Source of the DNA: Promethearchaeota archaeon
Lineage (GTDB): Archaea; Asgardarchaeota; Lokiarchaeia; Sigyniarchaeales; SOKP01
DNA length: 32,000 nucleotides
Assembly: GCA_030606485.1 (NCBI GenBank)
Contig: JAUWGH010000003.1
Span: forward strand, 330,001-362,000
Direction: 5' to 3'
A model generated the notes under the pieces. It had not been told where the DNA came from, made no database searches, and was given only the letters and a program-made list of their open reading frames with translations. The translations under genes and the position numbers were made by a program. Below are positions 13,383-18,820 of the stretch, piece after piece. Position 1 is the first letter of the stretch. Each line of letters opens with the position of its first letter.

Positions 13383-14153
13383 ATGAAGAAAAATAAGAAG
13401 AAAACAGGTAAAAAATCAAAAGAACCAGAAATAAACCAGCAAAGCTTTGTTTACTCACAAGACACTGCCCAAAGAATGGTTCTCATCCCTGGTGGAGAAT
13501 TTATTATGGGAAAAGATAGTGATCGTGAAGCTGATTTTAGTCCAGCGCATAAAGTACAGGTCGATTCGTTTTATATTGACAAGCATGAAGTAACTAATGC
13601 AGAGTATTATAAGTTTTGCCAAGAAACAGGGCATAATTTACCAGAATTTTGGGAAGTTGAAATATTTCGTTGTGGAAATGATTTTCCGAGTCATCCGGTA
13701 ATTGGTGTAAATTGGTCTGATGCAAAAGAATATGCTGAATGGGCTGGAAAACGATTACCAACTGAAGCTGAATGGGAATATGCTGCTAGAGGAAAACTTA
13801 TTGATAATCATTATCCTACAGGTAACGAATGGACTATTCCATTAAGAAGAAACACACCAGGAGAAGGTTGGGAGAATTTAATTGTAGAAGTTGACAGTTA
13901 TGATTCAAATGCTTATGGATTGTTCAATATGTCAGGAAATATTTGGGAATGGGTTTTGGATATATATAATGAAGAATATTATAATGAAAGTCCTTATAGT
14001 AATCCTAAAGGCCCCAAAAAAGGTACATTGAGGGTTATTCGTGGTGGAAGTTGGCATTCTGGTAAAATGTGTAAAAAAGTATTTTATCGAAAAGGACTTC
14101 CTTCAAATTGGGTCGATTTTGCTGTAGGGTTTCGATGCGCTAAGGATCTTTAA
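13383..14153 (+). CDS. Formylglycine-generating-enzyme (SUMF1/FGE-sulfatase) fold protein, probably not a true FGE
   Basis: IPGGEFIMG, FYIDKHEVTNAEY, HPVIGVNWSDA, RLPTEAEWEYAARG, GLFNMSGNIWEW, RGGSW, GFRCA. The CxxxxC pair is absent. Confidence 0.9.
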   Translation: MKKNKKKTGKKSKEPEINQQSFVYSQDTAQRMVLIPGGEFIMGKDSDREADFSPAHKVQVDSFYIDKHEVTNAEYYKFCQETGHNLPEFWEVEIFRCGNDFPSHPVIGVNWSDAKEYAEWAGKRLPTEAEWEYAARGKLIDNHYPTGNEWTIPLRRNTPGEGWENLIVEVDSYDSNAYGLFNMSGNIWEWVLDIYNEEYYNESPYSNPKGPKKGTLRVIRGGSWHSGKMCKKVFYRKGLPSNWVDFAVGFRCAKDL

Positions 14154-14387: not shown

Positions 14388-16913
14388 CTAAAATCCTGAT
14401 TCTTCTTTCAGTTGTTTAATTTCTGAAATATAATTATCTGCTTTTTCGATCCAACATGTTTTGGTTTCAAGTTCACATATCATCCCAGTTGAAATCTTTT
14501 TTCCTTTTTCAATATATTCAGTTGCTAAATCATATTCACCAAGTTCTTTATAACAATTACCCATTTTGATATATGTCTCATAAGAAAAGTAACCATATGG
14601 TTCAAGCTCTAATGCTTTTTGAAATTCTTTTATAGCTTCTTTAAATTCATTAAACATCATAAATATTTCACCATAAGAATCATGGTAATTTCCATTATTT
14701 GGAACAAGGGATACTAATTTTTTAGCAGCTTCTATAGATTCTTCTTTTTTCTCTAAATATGCTAACCCATAAACTTTACTATTCAGAAATTCGTAATCTT
14801 CAGGGTATAATTCAATTAAACTGTTAAGTATTTTTATTCCTTCATCAAATTCTTTCATTTTATAAAAAATATGTGCTTTTTTCCATAAAAGATCCTTTCT
14901 TTTCTCTGGAAAATCTTTAATACCTTCTTCTAATAAGGCTAATATATCATCGAATCTATTAACTGAAATTAAAATGTGTATTTTGGTGAAAAAGAGACAA
15001 ATATTTTTTGGATTTAGATCAATAGCAAAATCGATTGCATTAAATGCTTCTTCATATCTTTTCAATTCTCGCAAAATAGAACTTTTTAATTGATAAAATA
15101 GGGATATGTTGGATTTATTAGGCTCTAATGAAATAGTCTTATCAATCATATCTAAAGCAATATCCTCGTGTGCTTTTTGTGTATCAAATTTATAAATAAT
15201 ATTATAACCAAGCACTAGTGCTTTTGTTGCATAGGAAATAGGAATATCAGAATAAAGTTCGAGCAATTCATTAGCAACATTTAAAGCCTTCTCAAATTTT
15301 CCAAGAGTCATATAACAAAACGCTAATATAAAAGAAGAAGAAGCATAAATCTCTTTTTGAACAAGATTAATATCTATTTCTTTATTCAACAATTCAATGG
15401 CATCTTTATGTCTATTGGATACACATAAAATTATTGCTTTCAGAAGATAAAGTTCAAAGTTTTTTGGATTCAGTTTAAGATCAGAATCTACAATTTTTAA
15501 ATCTTCATTAAATTCTTTCCTTCTCTCAAATTTTTTTTGTTTTATTAAGTAATCTAGTTTAAATGAAAAATAAGGTTTTAGTGTTTTAAATATCTCCAGG
15601 TTTAAATTATACTTAAATTCACTTGGTTCAATAAAATCATATTGGGAATCAGTAGAATCATAAGTTTGAAATGCATCAGGAATATTTTGCCAAACGATAC
15701 CTTCTAATTTATCTAGTGGATCAATTAATCTTTTTTCAGTTTCGATTTTATAAGCCAAATATTTAATATATTCTGGTAAAAAATCTCTTAATGATTCTTT
15801 CAAATTTTTATTAAATACACTATCACAGATATCATCTAAGATATTGTCTAATAAATGTGTTAAATCTAAAGATGTATTAATGTAAAAAGTTTTTTCATAA
15901 AGCTTATTCAAATAAGTTAATTTTACGATATAATCTTTCACTATGGCTCTTAATACTTTCTCTATTCTCTCATTTACTTGAAAAAAATAAGCTTTACCTT
16001 GCTCATCTTCTAATTTGAAAAATTTTATTGTATAAAAATTTTCTTCTACAATTTTATAAATGTAATAATCAAGAATTGTTTTTTTAATATTATATTTATT
16101 AGAGAATTCCTCAGGTGAAATATATTCAGGATATTGATTCGGATGATTTAGGGAAAGAAAAAGTAAAATTTTGTCAAAATCTTCCTCATTACTTAATGTA
16201 TTTTTAACTTTAGCATAATCTAATTTTAACTTGTTATTTAGAAATCGAAACTTTAATTCATCATCTTCTATTTCATATTTTTCGAAAAATTTTATGGTTT
16301 TTTGTGTAATATCTTCAATTCTTTTGCTTTCTTCTTCCAAAATTGATTGTCGGTCTAGATCATATAATTTCAATATTCTTAAGTATTCCGTCTTACCCTC
16401 TGGAGTAATCTTATATTGCTTATTTTCATTTATTACAAATCCTTTGGTCATTAATAAATTAAGGTTTTTTGATAAAGAAGATTGATTAATTGAAAGAGGT
16501 TCTTCACGAAAATCTGACCATTTACAATAATCATTGTTATTTACCATCCAAAGAATAACATGATCGTAATTCCTTTTACTTATAATTGCTTTTGGAGGAT
16601 AATTTAATTTTCTTTTACCAGATTTTTTTAAATAGACCAACTCACTTAGTCTTTCTTTTCCTGCTGGTGTAATTTGGTAGTAATCTCGCTCAGGTTTTTC
16701 AACAAGACCTTTACTAATAAGATTATTTAACTTACCTGACAGTGTTGACTCACTTATTTCAACTTTAAAATCTGACCATCTACAGAACCTGTTGTTAGAA
16801 AGCATCCATAAAATAATTTGTTCATTATCTCGATTACCAAAAGGAGGACTTAAGACATTCTCAGGTGGATACATTATATTTATATTTTCTGAGTGACTCA
16901 TTATAAAACACAA
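14388..16913 (-). CDS. Putative transcriptional regulator: tandem N-terminal winged-helix domains plus C-terminal TPR array (start TTG 16913, or more likely ATG 16901)
   Basis: Two near-duplicate wHTH units (ILWMxxNNxxCxWSDF...SxLSxxLNxLxxKGxV...YxITPxGK), a third wHTH-like unit at about aa 245-315, and TPRs from about aa 480 (e.g. GNYHDSYGEIFMMFNEFKEAIKEFQKALELEP). Confidence 0.85.
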   Translation of the reverse strand: MCFIMSHSENINIMYPPENVLSPPFGNRDNEQIILWMLSNNRFCRWSDFKVEISESTLSGKLNNLISKGLVEKPERDYYQITPAGKERLSELVYLKKSGKRKLNYPPKAIISKRNYDHVILWMVNNNDYCKWSDFREEPLSINQSSLSKNLNLLMTKGFVINENKQYKITPEGKTEYLRILKLYDLDRQSILEEESKRIEDITQKTIKFFEKYEIEDDELKFRFLNNKLKLDYAKVKNTLSNEEDFDKILLFLSLNHPNQYPEYISPEEFSNKYNIKKTILDYYIYKIVEENFYTIKFFKLEDEQGKAYFFQVNERIEKVLRAIVKDYIVKLTYLNKLYEKTFYINTSLDLTHLLDNILDDICDSVFNKNLKESLRDFLPEYIKYLAYKIETEKRLIDPLDKLEGIVWQNIPDAFQTYDSTDSQYDFIEPSEFKYNLNLEIFKTLKPYFSFKLDYLIKQKKFERRKEFNEDLKIVDSDLKLNPKNFELYLLKAIILCVSNRHKDAIELLNKEIDINLVQKEIYASSSFILAFCYMTLGKFEKALNVANELLELYSDIPISYATKALVLGYNIIYKFDTQKAHEDIALDMIDKTISLEPNKSNISLFYQLKSSILRELKRYEEAFNAIDFAIDLNPKNICLFFTKIHILISVNRFDDILALLEEGIKDFPEKRKDLLWKKAHIFYKMKEFDEGIKILNSLIELYPEDYEFLNSKVYGLAYLEKKEESIEAAKKLVSLVPNNGNYHDSYGEIFMMFNEFKEAIKEFQKALELEPYGYFSYETYIKMGNCYKELGEYDLATEYIEKGKKISTGMICELETKTCWIEKADNYISEIKQLKEESGF

Positions 16914-16963
16914 AAAAAAATATTACTAATAATAAATAGTTCAATCACATTTAAATACTTTGC

Positions 16964-17008
16964 ACTTCACATCGGCTTTTGAACTTCGTGTGAAGTTCGA
17001 CTTCAAAA
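16964..17008. promoter_or_regulatory. Candidate operator in the divergent promoter: ACTTC repeats and inverted repeats
   Basis: GAACTTC-GTGT-GAAGTTC (16981-16998). ACTTCACA (16964-16971) is complementary to TGTGAAGT (16989-16996). ACTTC occurs at 16964, 16983 and 17000. The element lies between TATA-like boxes at 16950-16957 and 17010-17017. Confidence 0.55.
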
Positions 17009-17081
17009 CTTATATATGAATTATTTTCTTAATTTAAATTAATAATAAAAAATTGAAAAAAATTAGAAGTGATAAAAAAAA

Positions 17082-17324
17082 ATGGCCCAAGTATGTGAAA
17101 AAAATGCAGCACTTCTCGATAGTGCTGAAATAGAAATTGTTTTAGAAAAACTCCCTGAATTAAGAAAGCAAATCGAGAAAAAAAAAGTTGAAGATAAACA
17201 AGATAAATTACGATTATTGAAATTATTTAATGAAGCAAAATATAACGCTAAATATCATGAAGAGTTAATCCAAATAAAGGTAGTTAAAAGCCAGATTCAT
17301 TTTAGAAACTCTGGAGTTTTTTAA
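17082..17324 (+). CDS. Small hypothetical helical protein (80 aa)
   Basis: ATG with AGTGAT SD-like element at 17068-17073, TATA-like TTATATAT at 17010-17017, and a T-run after the stop. No family recognised. Confidence 0.65.
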   Translation: MAQVCEKNAALLDSAEIEIVLEKLPELRKQIEKKKVEDKQDKLRLLKLFNEAKYNAKYHEELIQIKVVKSQIHFRNSGVF

Positions 17325-17395
17325 AAAATCTAAATAAATTTTTTTACAATATATATTAAAAAAAAATAAAAAATCACAAAAGAGAGAAAAAAAAA

Positions 17396-17485
17396 ATGAA
17401 AACAAATAGAAGAAATAAAGAAAAACAAATAAAAAATAGAATAAATATTCCTACAGGATATAATCCACAGTATTTTATATATTAA
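17396..17485 (+). CDS. Unannotated small ORF, 29 aa: MKTNRRNKEKQIKNRINIPTGYNPQYFIY
   Basis: ATG 17396 to TAA 17485. ATATATTAAA TATA-like box at about 17351-17360, AGAGAG upstream of the start, and a T9 tract at 17492-17500. Confidence 0.55.
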   Translation: MKTNRRNKEKQIKNRINIPTGYNPQYFIY

Positions 17486-17491
17486 ATAATC

Positions 17492-17508
17492 TTTTTTTTT
17501 ATTTTTAT
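17492..17508 (+). terminator. Oligo-T archaeal terminator-like tract after the 29-aa sORF
   Basis: TTTTTTTTTATTTTTAT begins 6 nt after the stop codon. Confidence 0.45.
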
Positions 17509-17593: not shown

Positions 17594-17992
17594 TTAATGA
17601 TCATGTAAAAAACCATTGGGAAGAGTTTCTCCACATAAACATTGACTTGGATGACTATATACTTCGCAAATTCTTTCAATCAAATCACACGATATAACAT
17701 TTGCTATTTTTCTAGCTTCTTCATGAGCAAATTCTTCGGTAAGATTTAACACATCCATTAAGAAATGGGCAACCAGATGTTCATGCAATTTAAAATGCTG
17801 AGCTTCTTTCTTCCCGGCAGCAACTAACTCAACACTTCTATAAGGTTCCCATCTAACAAACTTTTTTTCAACTAATCGTTTCACTGCACTATTCACAGTG
17901 CTATGTTTAATATTTAAGGCTTTAGAGAGAACACCTACACTTATTGGGCTGTTTATTTTTTCTAAATAATTCAAAATTTTATTTTCAAGCAT
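17594..17992 (-). CDS. DtxR/MntR-family metal-dependent transcriptional regulator with divergent metal ligands
   Basis: wHTH 'LSKALNIKHSTVNSAVKRLVEKKFVRWEPYRSVELVAAGKKEA', dimerisation helix 'FLMDVLNL...AHEEA', and 'HPSQCLCGETLP' equivalent to GHPxxCPHGxPIP. Confidence 0.9.
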   Translation of the reverse strand: MLENKILNYLEKINSPISVGVLSKALNIKHSTVNSAVKRLVEKKFVRWEPYRSVELVAAGKKEAQHFKLHEHLVAHFLMDVLNLTEEFAHEEARKIANVISCDLIERICEVYSHPSQCLCGETLPNGFLHDH

Positions 17993-18040
17993 AGTAGATC
18001 ATGTTTTATTTTTTGTATTTTTCCTTTAAAATAATTAAAT

Positions 18041-18820
18041 TTATATATGCACTTGAAAGACTAATATCATTGTTCCTATTCCGGCCATCATTAAAAGAAA
18101 TTGCCTAAGTGTATGTTTTAATTCTATATTACGATGTTGCAATTCAGGATATAAATCAGCTAAAGCAATGTAAATAAAACTAGCAGCTGAAAATGCCAAG
18201 ATATAAGGAATCGCAGTTCTAACAATATCTAAAATAAAATAACTTATAATAGCTGCAGGAATGGTCGATGAGCCAGATAAAGTATTGTAAAATAATGCTT
18301 TCTTTTTTGAATAATCTTGATCAAGTAGTATTCCAAAATCACCTACTTCCTGAGGAACTTCATGAGCAATAACAGAAAGGCTTACAGCTATACCCATTGC
18401 AAAATTAATTAAGAAACTAGATGCAATAATAATACCATCAATAAGATTGTGGAAAGAATCTCCAATGAGAATAATTGGACCAGGAGCACCATGCACTTCA
18501 CAATTTGTTACATGACAATGACGCCAAATTATTAATTTTTCAAGAACAAAAAAAACAACAACCCCCATTAAAACAGTTGCTAATATAAATGATATATTTT
18601 GATTAACCTGTTCTATTACGGTAATATTTTCGTTAGCATACCCGATAGCATGTGGTATCATTCCTAAAAAAGCTGCTGAAAGTAATGTTCCGGTAGCGTA
18701 TGAAATTAAGCATGGAATAAGTGTATTCTGTACTTTATCATTAAATAGCAATAATGCACCCGCTGATAATACTGCACCAACACTGCCCAATACACTAAAT
18801 AATATAATCCATATTAACAT
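18041..18820 (-). CDS. ZIP family divalent metal transporter
   Basis: TM4 GDSFHNLIDG, TM5 IAHEVPQEVGDFG, loop WRHCH, ASFIYIALADLYPEL. Confidence 0.95.
   Translation of the reverse strand: MLIWIILFSVLGSVGAVLSAGALLLFNDKVQNTLIPCLISYATGTLLSAAFLGMIPHAIGYANENITVIEQVNQNISFILATVLMGVVVFFVLEKLIIWRHCHVTNCEVHGAPGPIILIGDSFHNLIDGIIIASSFLINFAMGIAVSLSVIAHEVPQEVGDFGILLDQDYSKKKALFYNTLSGSSTIPAAIISYFILDIVRTAIPYILAFSAASFIYIALADLYPELQHRNIELKHTLRQFLLMMAGIGTMILVFQVHI

Follow-up and report, generated by a model that had tools for sequence, protein, structure and literature searches.

The 32,000-nucleotide stretch of DNA analysed here (hereafter the window) comes from a Promethearchaeota archaeon (assembly GCA_030606485.1, contig JAUWGH010000003.1, positions 330,001 to 362,000 of the forward strand). 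Between its positions 14,388 and 17,500 lies a large gene for a putative transcriptional regulator, built of winged helix-turn-helix (wHTH) units and tetratricopeptide repeats (TPRs), which diverges from two small open reading frames (sORFs) of 80 and 29 amino acids (aa), here called sORF-A and sORF-B; a cluster of short palindromes separates the regulator from the small genes. An initial annotation of the window had read this arrangement as a candidate peptide-signalling module with the layout of the bacterial RRNPP systems. Here we find a new, uncharacterised regulator/micro-protein module that, in the sampled genomes, is largely limited to a single family of Loki-type Asgard archaea. The best-supported reading is of a local transcription module in which the TPR array acts as sensor, and which is probably autoregulated.

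The regulator and its control region

The regulator ORF was confirmed in the window at 14388..16913 on the minus strand, with its listed start at a TTG codon (16913). Close relatives start at an ATG that corresponds to 16901, which places the gene at 14388..16901 (–) and corrects the length of the product from 841 to 837 aa plus stop; more than 1174 relatives of its N-terminal 460 aa were found at E ≤ 1e-3 in a collection of 5.8 billion proteins. That the protein joins wHTH units to TPRs, as first annotated, is borne out by Pfam and AlphaFold2 alike. It consists of tandem wHTH domains of the MarR/PadR type, a middle region that is partly winged helix (WH)-like and partly helical, and a canonical TPR array. 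The first winged helix (WH1; aa 26–89; 16635..16826, –) is of the MarR/PadR/BldR type and the second (WH2; aa 112–180; 16362..16568, –) is its internal duplicate, the motif W[ML]xxNNxxCxWSDF being present in both. The initial annotation had looked to paralogues carrying this motif; there are none in this genome, where both copies lie inside the regulator, and paralogues occur only in related genera. Pfam matches to the winged helices are weak (HTH_45, HTH_34, PadR and HxlR, at about aa 30–100 and 115–180), and no XRE-type HTH model was found in the Pfam search of the regulator. Structural comparison with VIA-align matched WH1 and WH2 to MarR/PadR/BldR regulators at Z scores of 9–10.2 (root mean square deviation 1.6–3.2 over 66–80 residues), and a profile search of PDB sequences matched PadR proteins.

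The AlphaFold2 model, made from 59 homologues, has a mean pLDDT (the per-residue model confidence) of 84.5. It places a long helix between WH2 and a third WH-like unit (aa 214–308), which together with a helical bundle (aa 312–412) makes up a family-specific middle domain (15666..16262, –) where N252-H253-P254 is invariant; a disordered linker then leads to the C-terminal TPR array (aa 461–834; 14400..15521, –). The array, modelled at a pLDDT above 90, forms a superhelix of about ten canonical repeats, with strong matches to Pfam TPR models across aa 470–810 (TPR_2, 5e-22; TPR_19, 9e-18; also TPR_8 and TPR_1). A Foldseek search with the whole model matched generic TPR proteins only, the TPR part aligning with superhelices of the OGT, TTC7 and APC3 type (E 1e-11 to 1e-8). 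PADLOC gave generic WH matches only, and no membership of a defence system for the module.

The DNA between the divergent genes appears to hold two outward-facing promoters on either side of an operator-like element. A box resembling a transcription factor B recognition element with TATA box (AAAGTATTTAAA on the minus strand; 16950..16961) is the likely promoter element of the regulator, with the same AAAG-TTTAAA box present again at paralogue loci. On the plus strand the TATA-like box TTATATAT (17010..17017), found at the homologous position in paralogue loci, would serve the sORF-A transcript. The operator-like element itself spans 16964..17004. It contains the pentamer ACTTC at 16964, 16983 and 17000 and the pentamer GAAGT at 16992, which together form the overlapping palindromes GAAGT-N3-ACTTC and ACTTC-N4-GAAGT. 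The repeat and palindrome that had been noted in the shared promoter hold up well: the arms ACTTCACA/TGTGAAGT match at 8 of 8 positions and GAACTTC/GAAGTTC at 7 of 7. The whole genome has three sites each of the forms GAAGT-N3-ACTTC, GAAGT-N4-ACTTC and ACTTC-N4-GAAGT, and the cluster in the window is unique; a regulon search of this genome found the remaining palindromes inside genes or without telling context. The pentamer arrangement recurs upstream of paralogues, for example as GAAGTtcgaACTTC or in the variant GAACT/AGTTC, and at least two pentamers were present in 32 of 45 paralogue upstream regions compared with about 3% of random low-GC windows. Among close relatives the intergenic spacer is 94–97% identical, at a synonymous divergence (dS) of the regulator of 0.16–0.18. 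The pentamer cluster has the form expected of an operator for a wHTH protein that is tandem or dimeric, and we regard it as a candidate for the site bound by the regulator.

Two conserved small genes opposite the regulator

Both small ORFs that had been annotated as divergent from the regulator are present, and both are conserved beyond chance. sORF-A (80 aa; 17082..17324, +) follows a Shine-Dalgarno (SD)-like sequence, GAAGTGAT (17066..17073, +), located 8 nt before its start. A hidden Markov model (HMM) derived from other genera had sORF-A as its sole match (E 8e-16; next E 1.1) among the 17,102 ORFs of 20–130 aa in the genome. In tblastn searches, homologues were found in the same place, about 160–200 nt upstream and divergent, beside many regulator paralogues of other genera; about 16 of 24 matches are adjacent to and divergent from a regulator, and among the 31 genomes of the family convincing matches (E ≤ 3e-5) are confined to genera that have the regulator. 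The pairing of sORF-A with the regulator occurs in at least five well-supported clades of a maximum-likelihood tree of regulator N-terminal parts, and thus the association has survived repeated duplication. sORF-A goes mostly with the long-TPR regulator classes (about 840 and 990 aa) and is missing from the TPR-less class. A divergent sORF with a conserved C-terminus, which the initial annotation had suggested looking for beside the paralogues, accompanies most members of the long classes, often with a second sORF of 22–29 aa besides the sORF-A-like one. This conservation of sequence and place marks sORF-A as a genuine gene that is linked to the regulator.

The most constant part of the sORF-A alignment is the N-terminal M-x-Q-V-x-E-K; a charged and variable middle follows, and then a conserved C-terminal helix and aromatic-ended tail (NAKYHEEL..I..VK..I.FRN.GVF). 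In a public collection sORF-A corresponds to 83 clusters, all labelled ‘hypothetical’ and lacking a Pfam domain, the named ones being from Loki-type Asgard archaea. Pfam and NCBIfam yielded nothing credible for either sORF, and protein-atlas matches for sORF-A (unnamed viral clusters, 0.89) were sub-threshold and discarded. Variants of 79 aa at three loci (L017, L031, L042) keep the N-terminal M-M-Q-V-I/V-V-E-K and have a transmembrane (TM) helix in place of the KYHEEL tail; the regulators beside them belong to a well-supported clade of four, which includes one (L034) with a non-TM sORF-A-like variant.

sORF-B (29 aa; 17396..17485, +) has a basic N-terminus and ends in ...PTGYNPQYFIY, and a tract of nine T (17492..17500, +) that resembles an archaeal terminator begins 6 nt after its stop. 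Searches with each of two syntenic peptides of 24–25 aa from other genera (L027, L024) ranked sORF-B first among the 17,102 ORFs; despite the weak E-values of these single-peptide searches (0.13 and 4.3), two independent first ranks make chance very unlikely. Sequences from other genera yielded the C-terminal motif NPx[YF]xx[YF]. Just two of the 11,201 small ORFs of the genome contain it, sORF-B being one of them, as do six of 791 small ORFs from loci outside its own genus, all six adjoining regulators. Of 17 sORF-B homologues, 15 are preceded by SD-like motifs, compared with 8% of small ORFs in the background (p 4e-15); many have an oligo-T tract downstream, and the counterparts in relatives are annotated as genes. 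The type of peptide tracks the regulator clade, one clade having ...DII[IV]I[QH]NPAY..Y and the others ...GYNP.[YF]..Y, and paralogues in one genome carry differing tails. Judged by these comparisons, sORF-B too is a real conserved gene.

In some loci additional conserved micro-genes follow sORF-A and sORF-B, with products of 32–46 aa (L008, L009, L028) or 68–69 aa (L018, L027), so that such loci are small islands of SD-led micro-ORFs. One type encodes a four-cysteine, zinc-ribbon-like peptide (C-M-K-C-G-K ... C-K-K-C) and another a 22–27-aa MKKGP[IV]CYVYYA peptide (L018, L029). A gene for a leucine-rich repeat (LRR) protein (N-terminus of the product ...EFRG.QIP.TEA..L..IEQKL...) occurs at two loci; at L028 it lies downstream of sORF-A and a zinc-ribbon ORF, and at L056 (1046–2747) it is divergent from a sORF-A/B pair.

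Several other identities for the small genes were considered and rejected. A precursor cluster for ribosomally synthesised and post-translationally modified peptides would be expected beside a maturase, and none is conserved nearby; the neighbouring sulfatase-modifying (FGE-sulfatase-like) gene is absent from the loci of the closest relatives. A toxin–antitoxin pair or type I toxin was dismissed for want of a TM segment and of a PADLOC match, and leader-peptide attenuation because neither sORF precedes a structural gene. The genome's single OppA-like binding protein and its M50 proteases were judged uninformative, both being near-ubiquitous.

The regulator family and its neighbours

Searched exhaustively, 1.84 billion cluster representatives yielded only 187 clusters of the regulator family, which is therefore narrow. 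The best 120 relatives of the N-terminal 460 aa are 54–97% identical to it, and the named ones are labelled Promethearchaeota, Lokiarchaeota or other Asgard groups. Among 151 sampled genomes from the phylum of the window, strong matches were confined to one GTDB family, where 20 of 25 genomes have them; a second family contributed one partial match (E 4e-30). Across the family a genome holds one to seven paralogues, this genome having one, and the proteins fall into four length classes of about 420–460 (TPR-less), 640, 840 and 990 aa. The sequencing runs in which this DNA occurs are metagenomes of cold seeps and marine sediments, and no RNA run was listed among them.

The class of paralogues of about 640 aa, as well as some of the longer ones, diverges from a gene for a Rab/Ras-like small GTPase (180–188 aa; ...GDGxVGKTSL...WDIAGQ...; L019–L022, L035, L039, L043, L044, L057). 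At these loci the promoter is of the same pentamer-bearing kind, and the cluster sometimes includes micro-genes like sORF-A or sORF-B. TPR-less paralogues (418–431 aa; L063–L066, e.g. L065:1531–3177) are followed by an 84-aa ubiquitin-like (Ubl) gene whose product ends in Gly-Gly, and at L065 genes for ThiF/E1-like and E2-like proteins adjoin it, which suggests that these paralogues are linked to the Asgard ubiquitin-type system. Further divergent neighbours of paralogues include genes for a 130-aa membrane protein and a histidine-kinase-like protein.

Two features flank the module in the window itself. The FGE-sulfatase/SUMF1-like gene (13383–14153, +; Pfam 1.8e-58) separates a GNAT gene from the 3′ end of the regulator gene; it is absent in a 91%-identical relative (L004), where the GNAT gene abuts the regulator, and it looks like a recent insertion. 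On the other side, adjoining sORF-B, is a pair of genes (17594–18820, –) for a DtxR/MntR-like repressor (132 aa, short form) and a ZIP metal transporter, which is syntenic in relatives (L002, L003, L005) and apparently unrelated to the module.

The proposed input to the TPR array and comparison with known systems

From this arrangement we infer how the module might work. The tandem MarR/PadR-type winged helices would bind the GAAGT/ACTTC palindromes between the back-to-back promoters, and the regulator would control both its own gene and a small operon for sORF-A and sORF-B. The C-terminal TPR superhelix would be the input domain, and the most likely input would be the products of the small genes themselves, contacted through their conserved aromatic C-terminal tails. 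A feedback circuit would result, working like Rgg/SHP or other RRNPP pairs, with the peptide acting inside the cell or after export. Binding of C-terminal tails is common among TPR grooves, as in Hop–EEVD, PEX5–PTS1 and the APC3–IR tail. A small-gene product seems the most plausible ligand because the sORFs are strictly co-inherited with the regulator, because sORF-A is associated with the long TPR classes, and because the aromatic tails, of the kind that TPR grooves typically read, are conserved. Peptide gating of the regulator is plausible, and to the full proposal, an autoregulated wHTH–TPR module with small-gene products as TPR ligand, we give a probability of roughly 0.4. A bolder version would have the tails of sORF-B, of sORF-A or of both released and read by the cognate TPR, making this the first archaeal peptide signalling, with 2–7 orthogonal receptor–peptide pairs per genome, convergent with RRNPP and also wired to Rab-like GTPase and Ubl modules; this we consider unlikely.

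Several observations weigh against peptide feedback. Within the genus, the ratio of nonsynonymous to synonymous substitution (dN/dS) is about 0.6–1.5 for sORF-A and sORF-B, from few changes, compared with 0.07–0.17 for the N-terminal part of the regulator; this could fit fast-evolving pro-peptides undergoing pherotype diversification, and would fit weak constraint equally well. Neither sORF has a signal peptide or TM segment, in keeping with the earlier remark that both lack a hydrophobic signal peptide. A broad HMM of 16 sORF-B-like peptides picked by eye misses the peptide in the window (rank 247, E 44), which indicates that the wider sORF-B set is heterogeneous and partly compositional, since K, I, N and Y are encoded by AT-rich codons; the conservation of sORF-B is based on the single-peptide searches and the C-terminal motif, not on this model. 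Regulators are missing next to a few copies of sORF-A (L058, L059), and one sORF-A/B pair lies beside an LRR protein gene with no regulator (L056). Finally, the same regulator family faces a Rab-like GTPase, a 130-aa membrane protein and a histidine-kinase-like gene, and its TPR-less members adjoin Ubl genes, so that taking the neighbour as target explains the family as well as taking the neighbour as ligand. Prediction of a complex between the full regulator and sORF-A returned a score of 0.00, with the fold of sORF-A uncertain (pLDDT <50 in at least one run), and counts neither for nor against an interaction.

The variety of neighbours also argues for the main rival reading, in which the sORFs are regulated cargo and not signal, the TPRs sensing some other protein or peptide and each paralogue controlling the gene across its bidirectional promoter. 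On this account one regulator family and one type of pentamer operator would serve very different divergent genes; the very few palindrome sites genome-wide suggest purely local control, and sORF-A and sORF-B can occur without an adjacent regulator. Still, the sORF-A pairing is kept in at least five well-supported clades, convincing sORF-A matches come only from regulator-bearing genera, sORF-A goes with the long TPR classes, and the conserved aromatic C-terminal tails are of a sort recognised by TPR grooves, all of which leave the cargo explanation a serious but doubtful one. A less probable alternative makes sORF-A a protein partner or anti-regulator, acting by partner switching or sequestration through M-x-Q-V-x-E-K, with sORF-B as a separate micro-protein. 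It would account for the constancy of that motif, the most conserved part of the protein, and for its retention in the 79-aa TM-ended variants, which belong to a separate well-supported clade, whereas the uncertain predicted fold of sORF-A and its within-genus dN/dS near 1 speak against a protein partner, and we think it rather unlikely.

The remaining two explanations fare much worse. A multi-winged-helix/TPR scaffold of the RPC62/TFIIIC type, or part of some other eukaryote-like machinery with the sORFs as subunits, comes to mind because Foldseek ranked RPC62 (E 1e-3) and TFIIIC tauB highest for the N-terminal 460 aa, and because paralogues adjoin eukaryote-signature genes (Rab-like GTPase; Ubl, E1 and E2). 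The TM-scores of those matches are just 0.13–0.18, however, and we did not take the match to RPC62, at 0.16, as homology, reading it as a generic likeness among multi-WH proteins. WH1 and WH2 resemble DNA-binding regulators of the MarR/PadR type at Z scores of 9–10, the strong matches fall in one family of the sampled genomes with one to seven variable paralogues, and the regulator's own promoter has conserved palindromic DNA, which together make a scaffold very improbable. The least probable explanation is that one or both sORFs are chance frames in an AT-rich spacer whose DNA or RNA signals are what is conserved. AT-rich DNA does yield frames rich in K, I, N and Y, the spacer itself is highly conserved among close relatives, the sORF dN/dS is about 1 and the broad sORF-B model fails; against this stand protein homology of the sORFs across genera in which the N-terminal part of the regulator is about 49–62% identical, the SD motifs and terminator-like tracts, and a conserved GYNP motif that uses G and P codons.

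Full-text literature searches returned nothing for Asgard together with RRNPP, and nothing relevant for RRNPP together with archaea. To our knowledge, neither a peptide-gated transcription factor nor a peptide pheromone system is described from Archaea, and the module is a concrete candidate in the lineage closest to eukaryotes, with a regulator, a 45-bp operator-like site and two micro-proteins in hand. Even if the peptides should prove to be only cargo, a lineage-specific set of paralogous regulators beside Rab-like GTPase and Ubl genes is new, and the family may be a handle on the control of the ‘eukaryotic signature’ genes of Asgard archaea. The sORFs also provide two new conserved micro-protein families (about 75 and 25 aa) from a nearly unexplored part of archaeal proteomes, the 29-aa gene being one that standard annotation has overlooked or left unnamed. 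The new elements of this work are the sORF-A family, the cross-validated sORF statistics, an operator motif that recurs, the assignment of pairings to clades and the dN/dS contrast.

Among known proteins, RPC62/C82, a subunit of RNA polymerase III, resembles the regulator in having several winged helices in a row with helical connectors, but it lacks TPRs and is universal in eukaryotes, whereas the regulator has TPRs and was found mainly in one sampled Asgard family; the resemblance is probably generic. Archaeal and bacterial regulators of the MarR/PadR/HxlR type (BldR of Sulfolobus, PDB 3f3x; PadR) share the fold of WH1 and WH2, and their palindromic operators, in or near their own promoters, have a candidate counterpart in the pentamer cluster. 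They are homodimers of about 100–180 aa with one wHTH per chain and small-molecule ligands, unlike the present protein, in which a 230-aa middle domain and a TPR array of 370 aa are fused to two tandem wHTH domains. Proteins whose TPRs read tails, such as Hop, PEX5 and APC3, have the same canonical superhelix, APC3 being with OGT and TTC7 among the best structural matches, and the candidate partners here end in conserved aromatic tails; in Hop, PEX5 and APC3, however, the TPRs are not fused to DNA-binding domains as they are here.

The closest layout, by analogy, is that of Rgg/SHP, in which ORFs of 22–23 aa lie on the opposite strand beside the regulator (PMC3150281). Like that system, the module appears to combine a cytoplasmic DNA-binding regulator that has a C-terminal TPR-type domain with an ORF of 22–29 aa on the opposite strand beside it, and there are several paralogous pairs per genome. 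sORF-B resembles SHP (PMC3150281) in its basic N-terminus, its hydrophobic stretch and its lack of a Sec signal peptide, and DIIII, as in SHP, is found in several sORF-B homologues. In contrast to the XRE-type HTH, length of about 280 aa and degenerate, compact TPR of Rgg, the regulator has two MarR/PadR-type wHTH domains plus a third WH, 837 aa and a canonical superhelix of about ten repeats. A second candidate partner gene of 80 aa and an archaeal host also set it apart.

More broadly, RRNPPA systems have been described for Bacillota, their conjugative and mobile elements, and phages (PMC12700828). With members such as PlcR/PapR, NprR/NprX, Rap/Phr, PrgX and AimR/AimP the module shares the plan of a TPR sensor, here a putative one, and an adjacent candidate pro-peptide gene with a conserved C-terminus, in paralogous pairs that have expanded; its TPR-type domain follows the DNA-binding domain, and the small gene is adjacent, conserved and co-inherited. 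It differs in lacking the XRE/Cro-type HTH (itself absent in Rap) and in its host, which is not one of the Bacillota, a plasmid, an integrative and conjugative element or a phage. RRNPP peptides leave the cell, are processed and return through Opp, and in mature form they bind the TPR pocket and so switch the receptor; of the sORFs here, neither has a signal peptide. No RRNPP structure was among the 50 best Foldseek matches and no RRNPP-specific Pfam model was matched, results with which distant kinship is compatible. With HTH type, size, TPR type and taxon all different, we rejected membership of the regulator in RRNPP. Of the RRNPP-like module first proposed, as a probably convergent one, the layout stands, matching that of Rgg/SHP; homology to RRNPP receptors is improbable, given a wHTH of the MarR/PadR instead of the XRE type and TPRs like those of OGT and APC. 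The module is thus a candidate for, at most, a convergent analogue of RRNPP.

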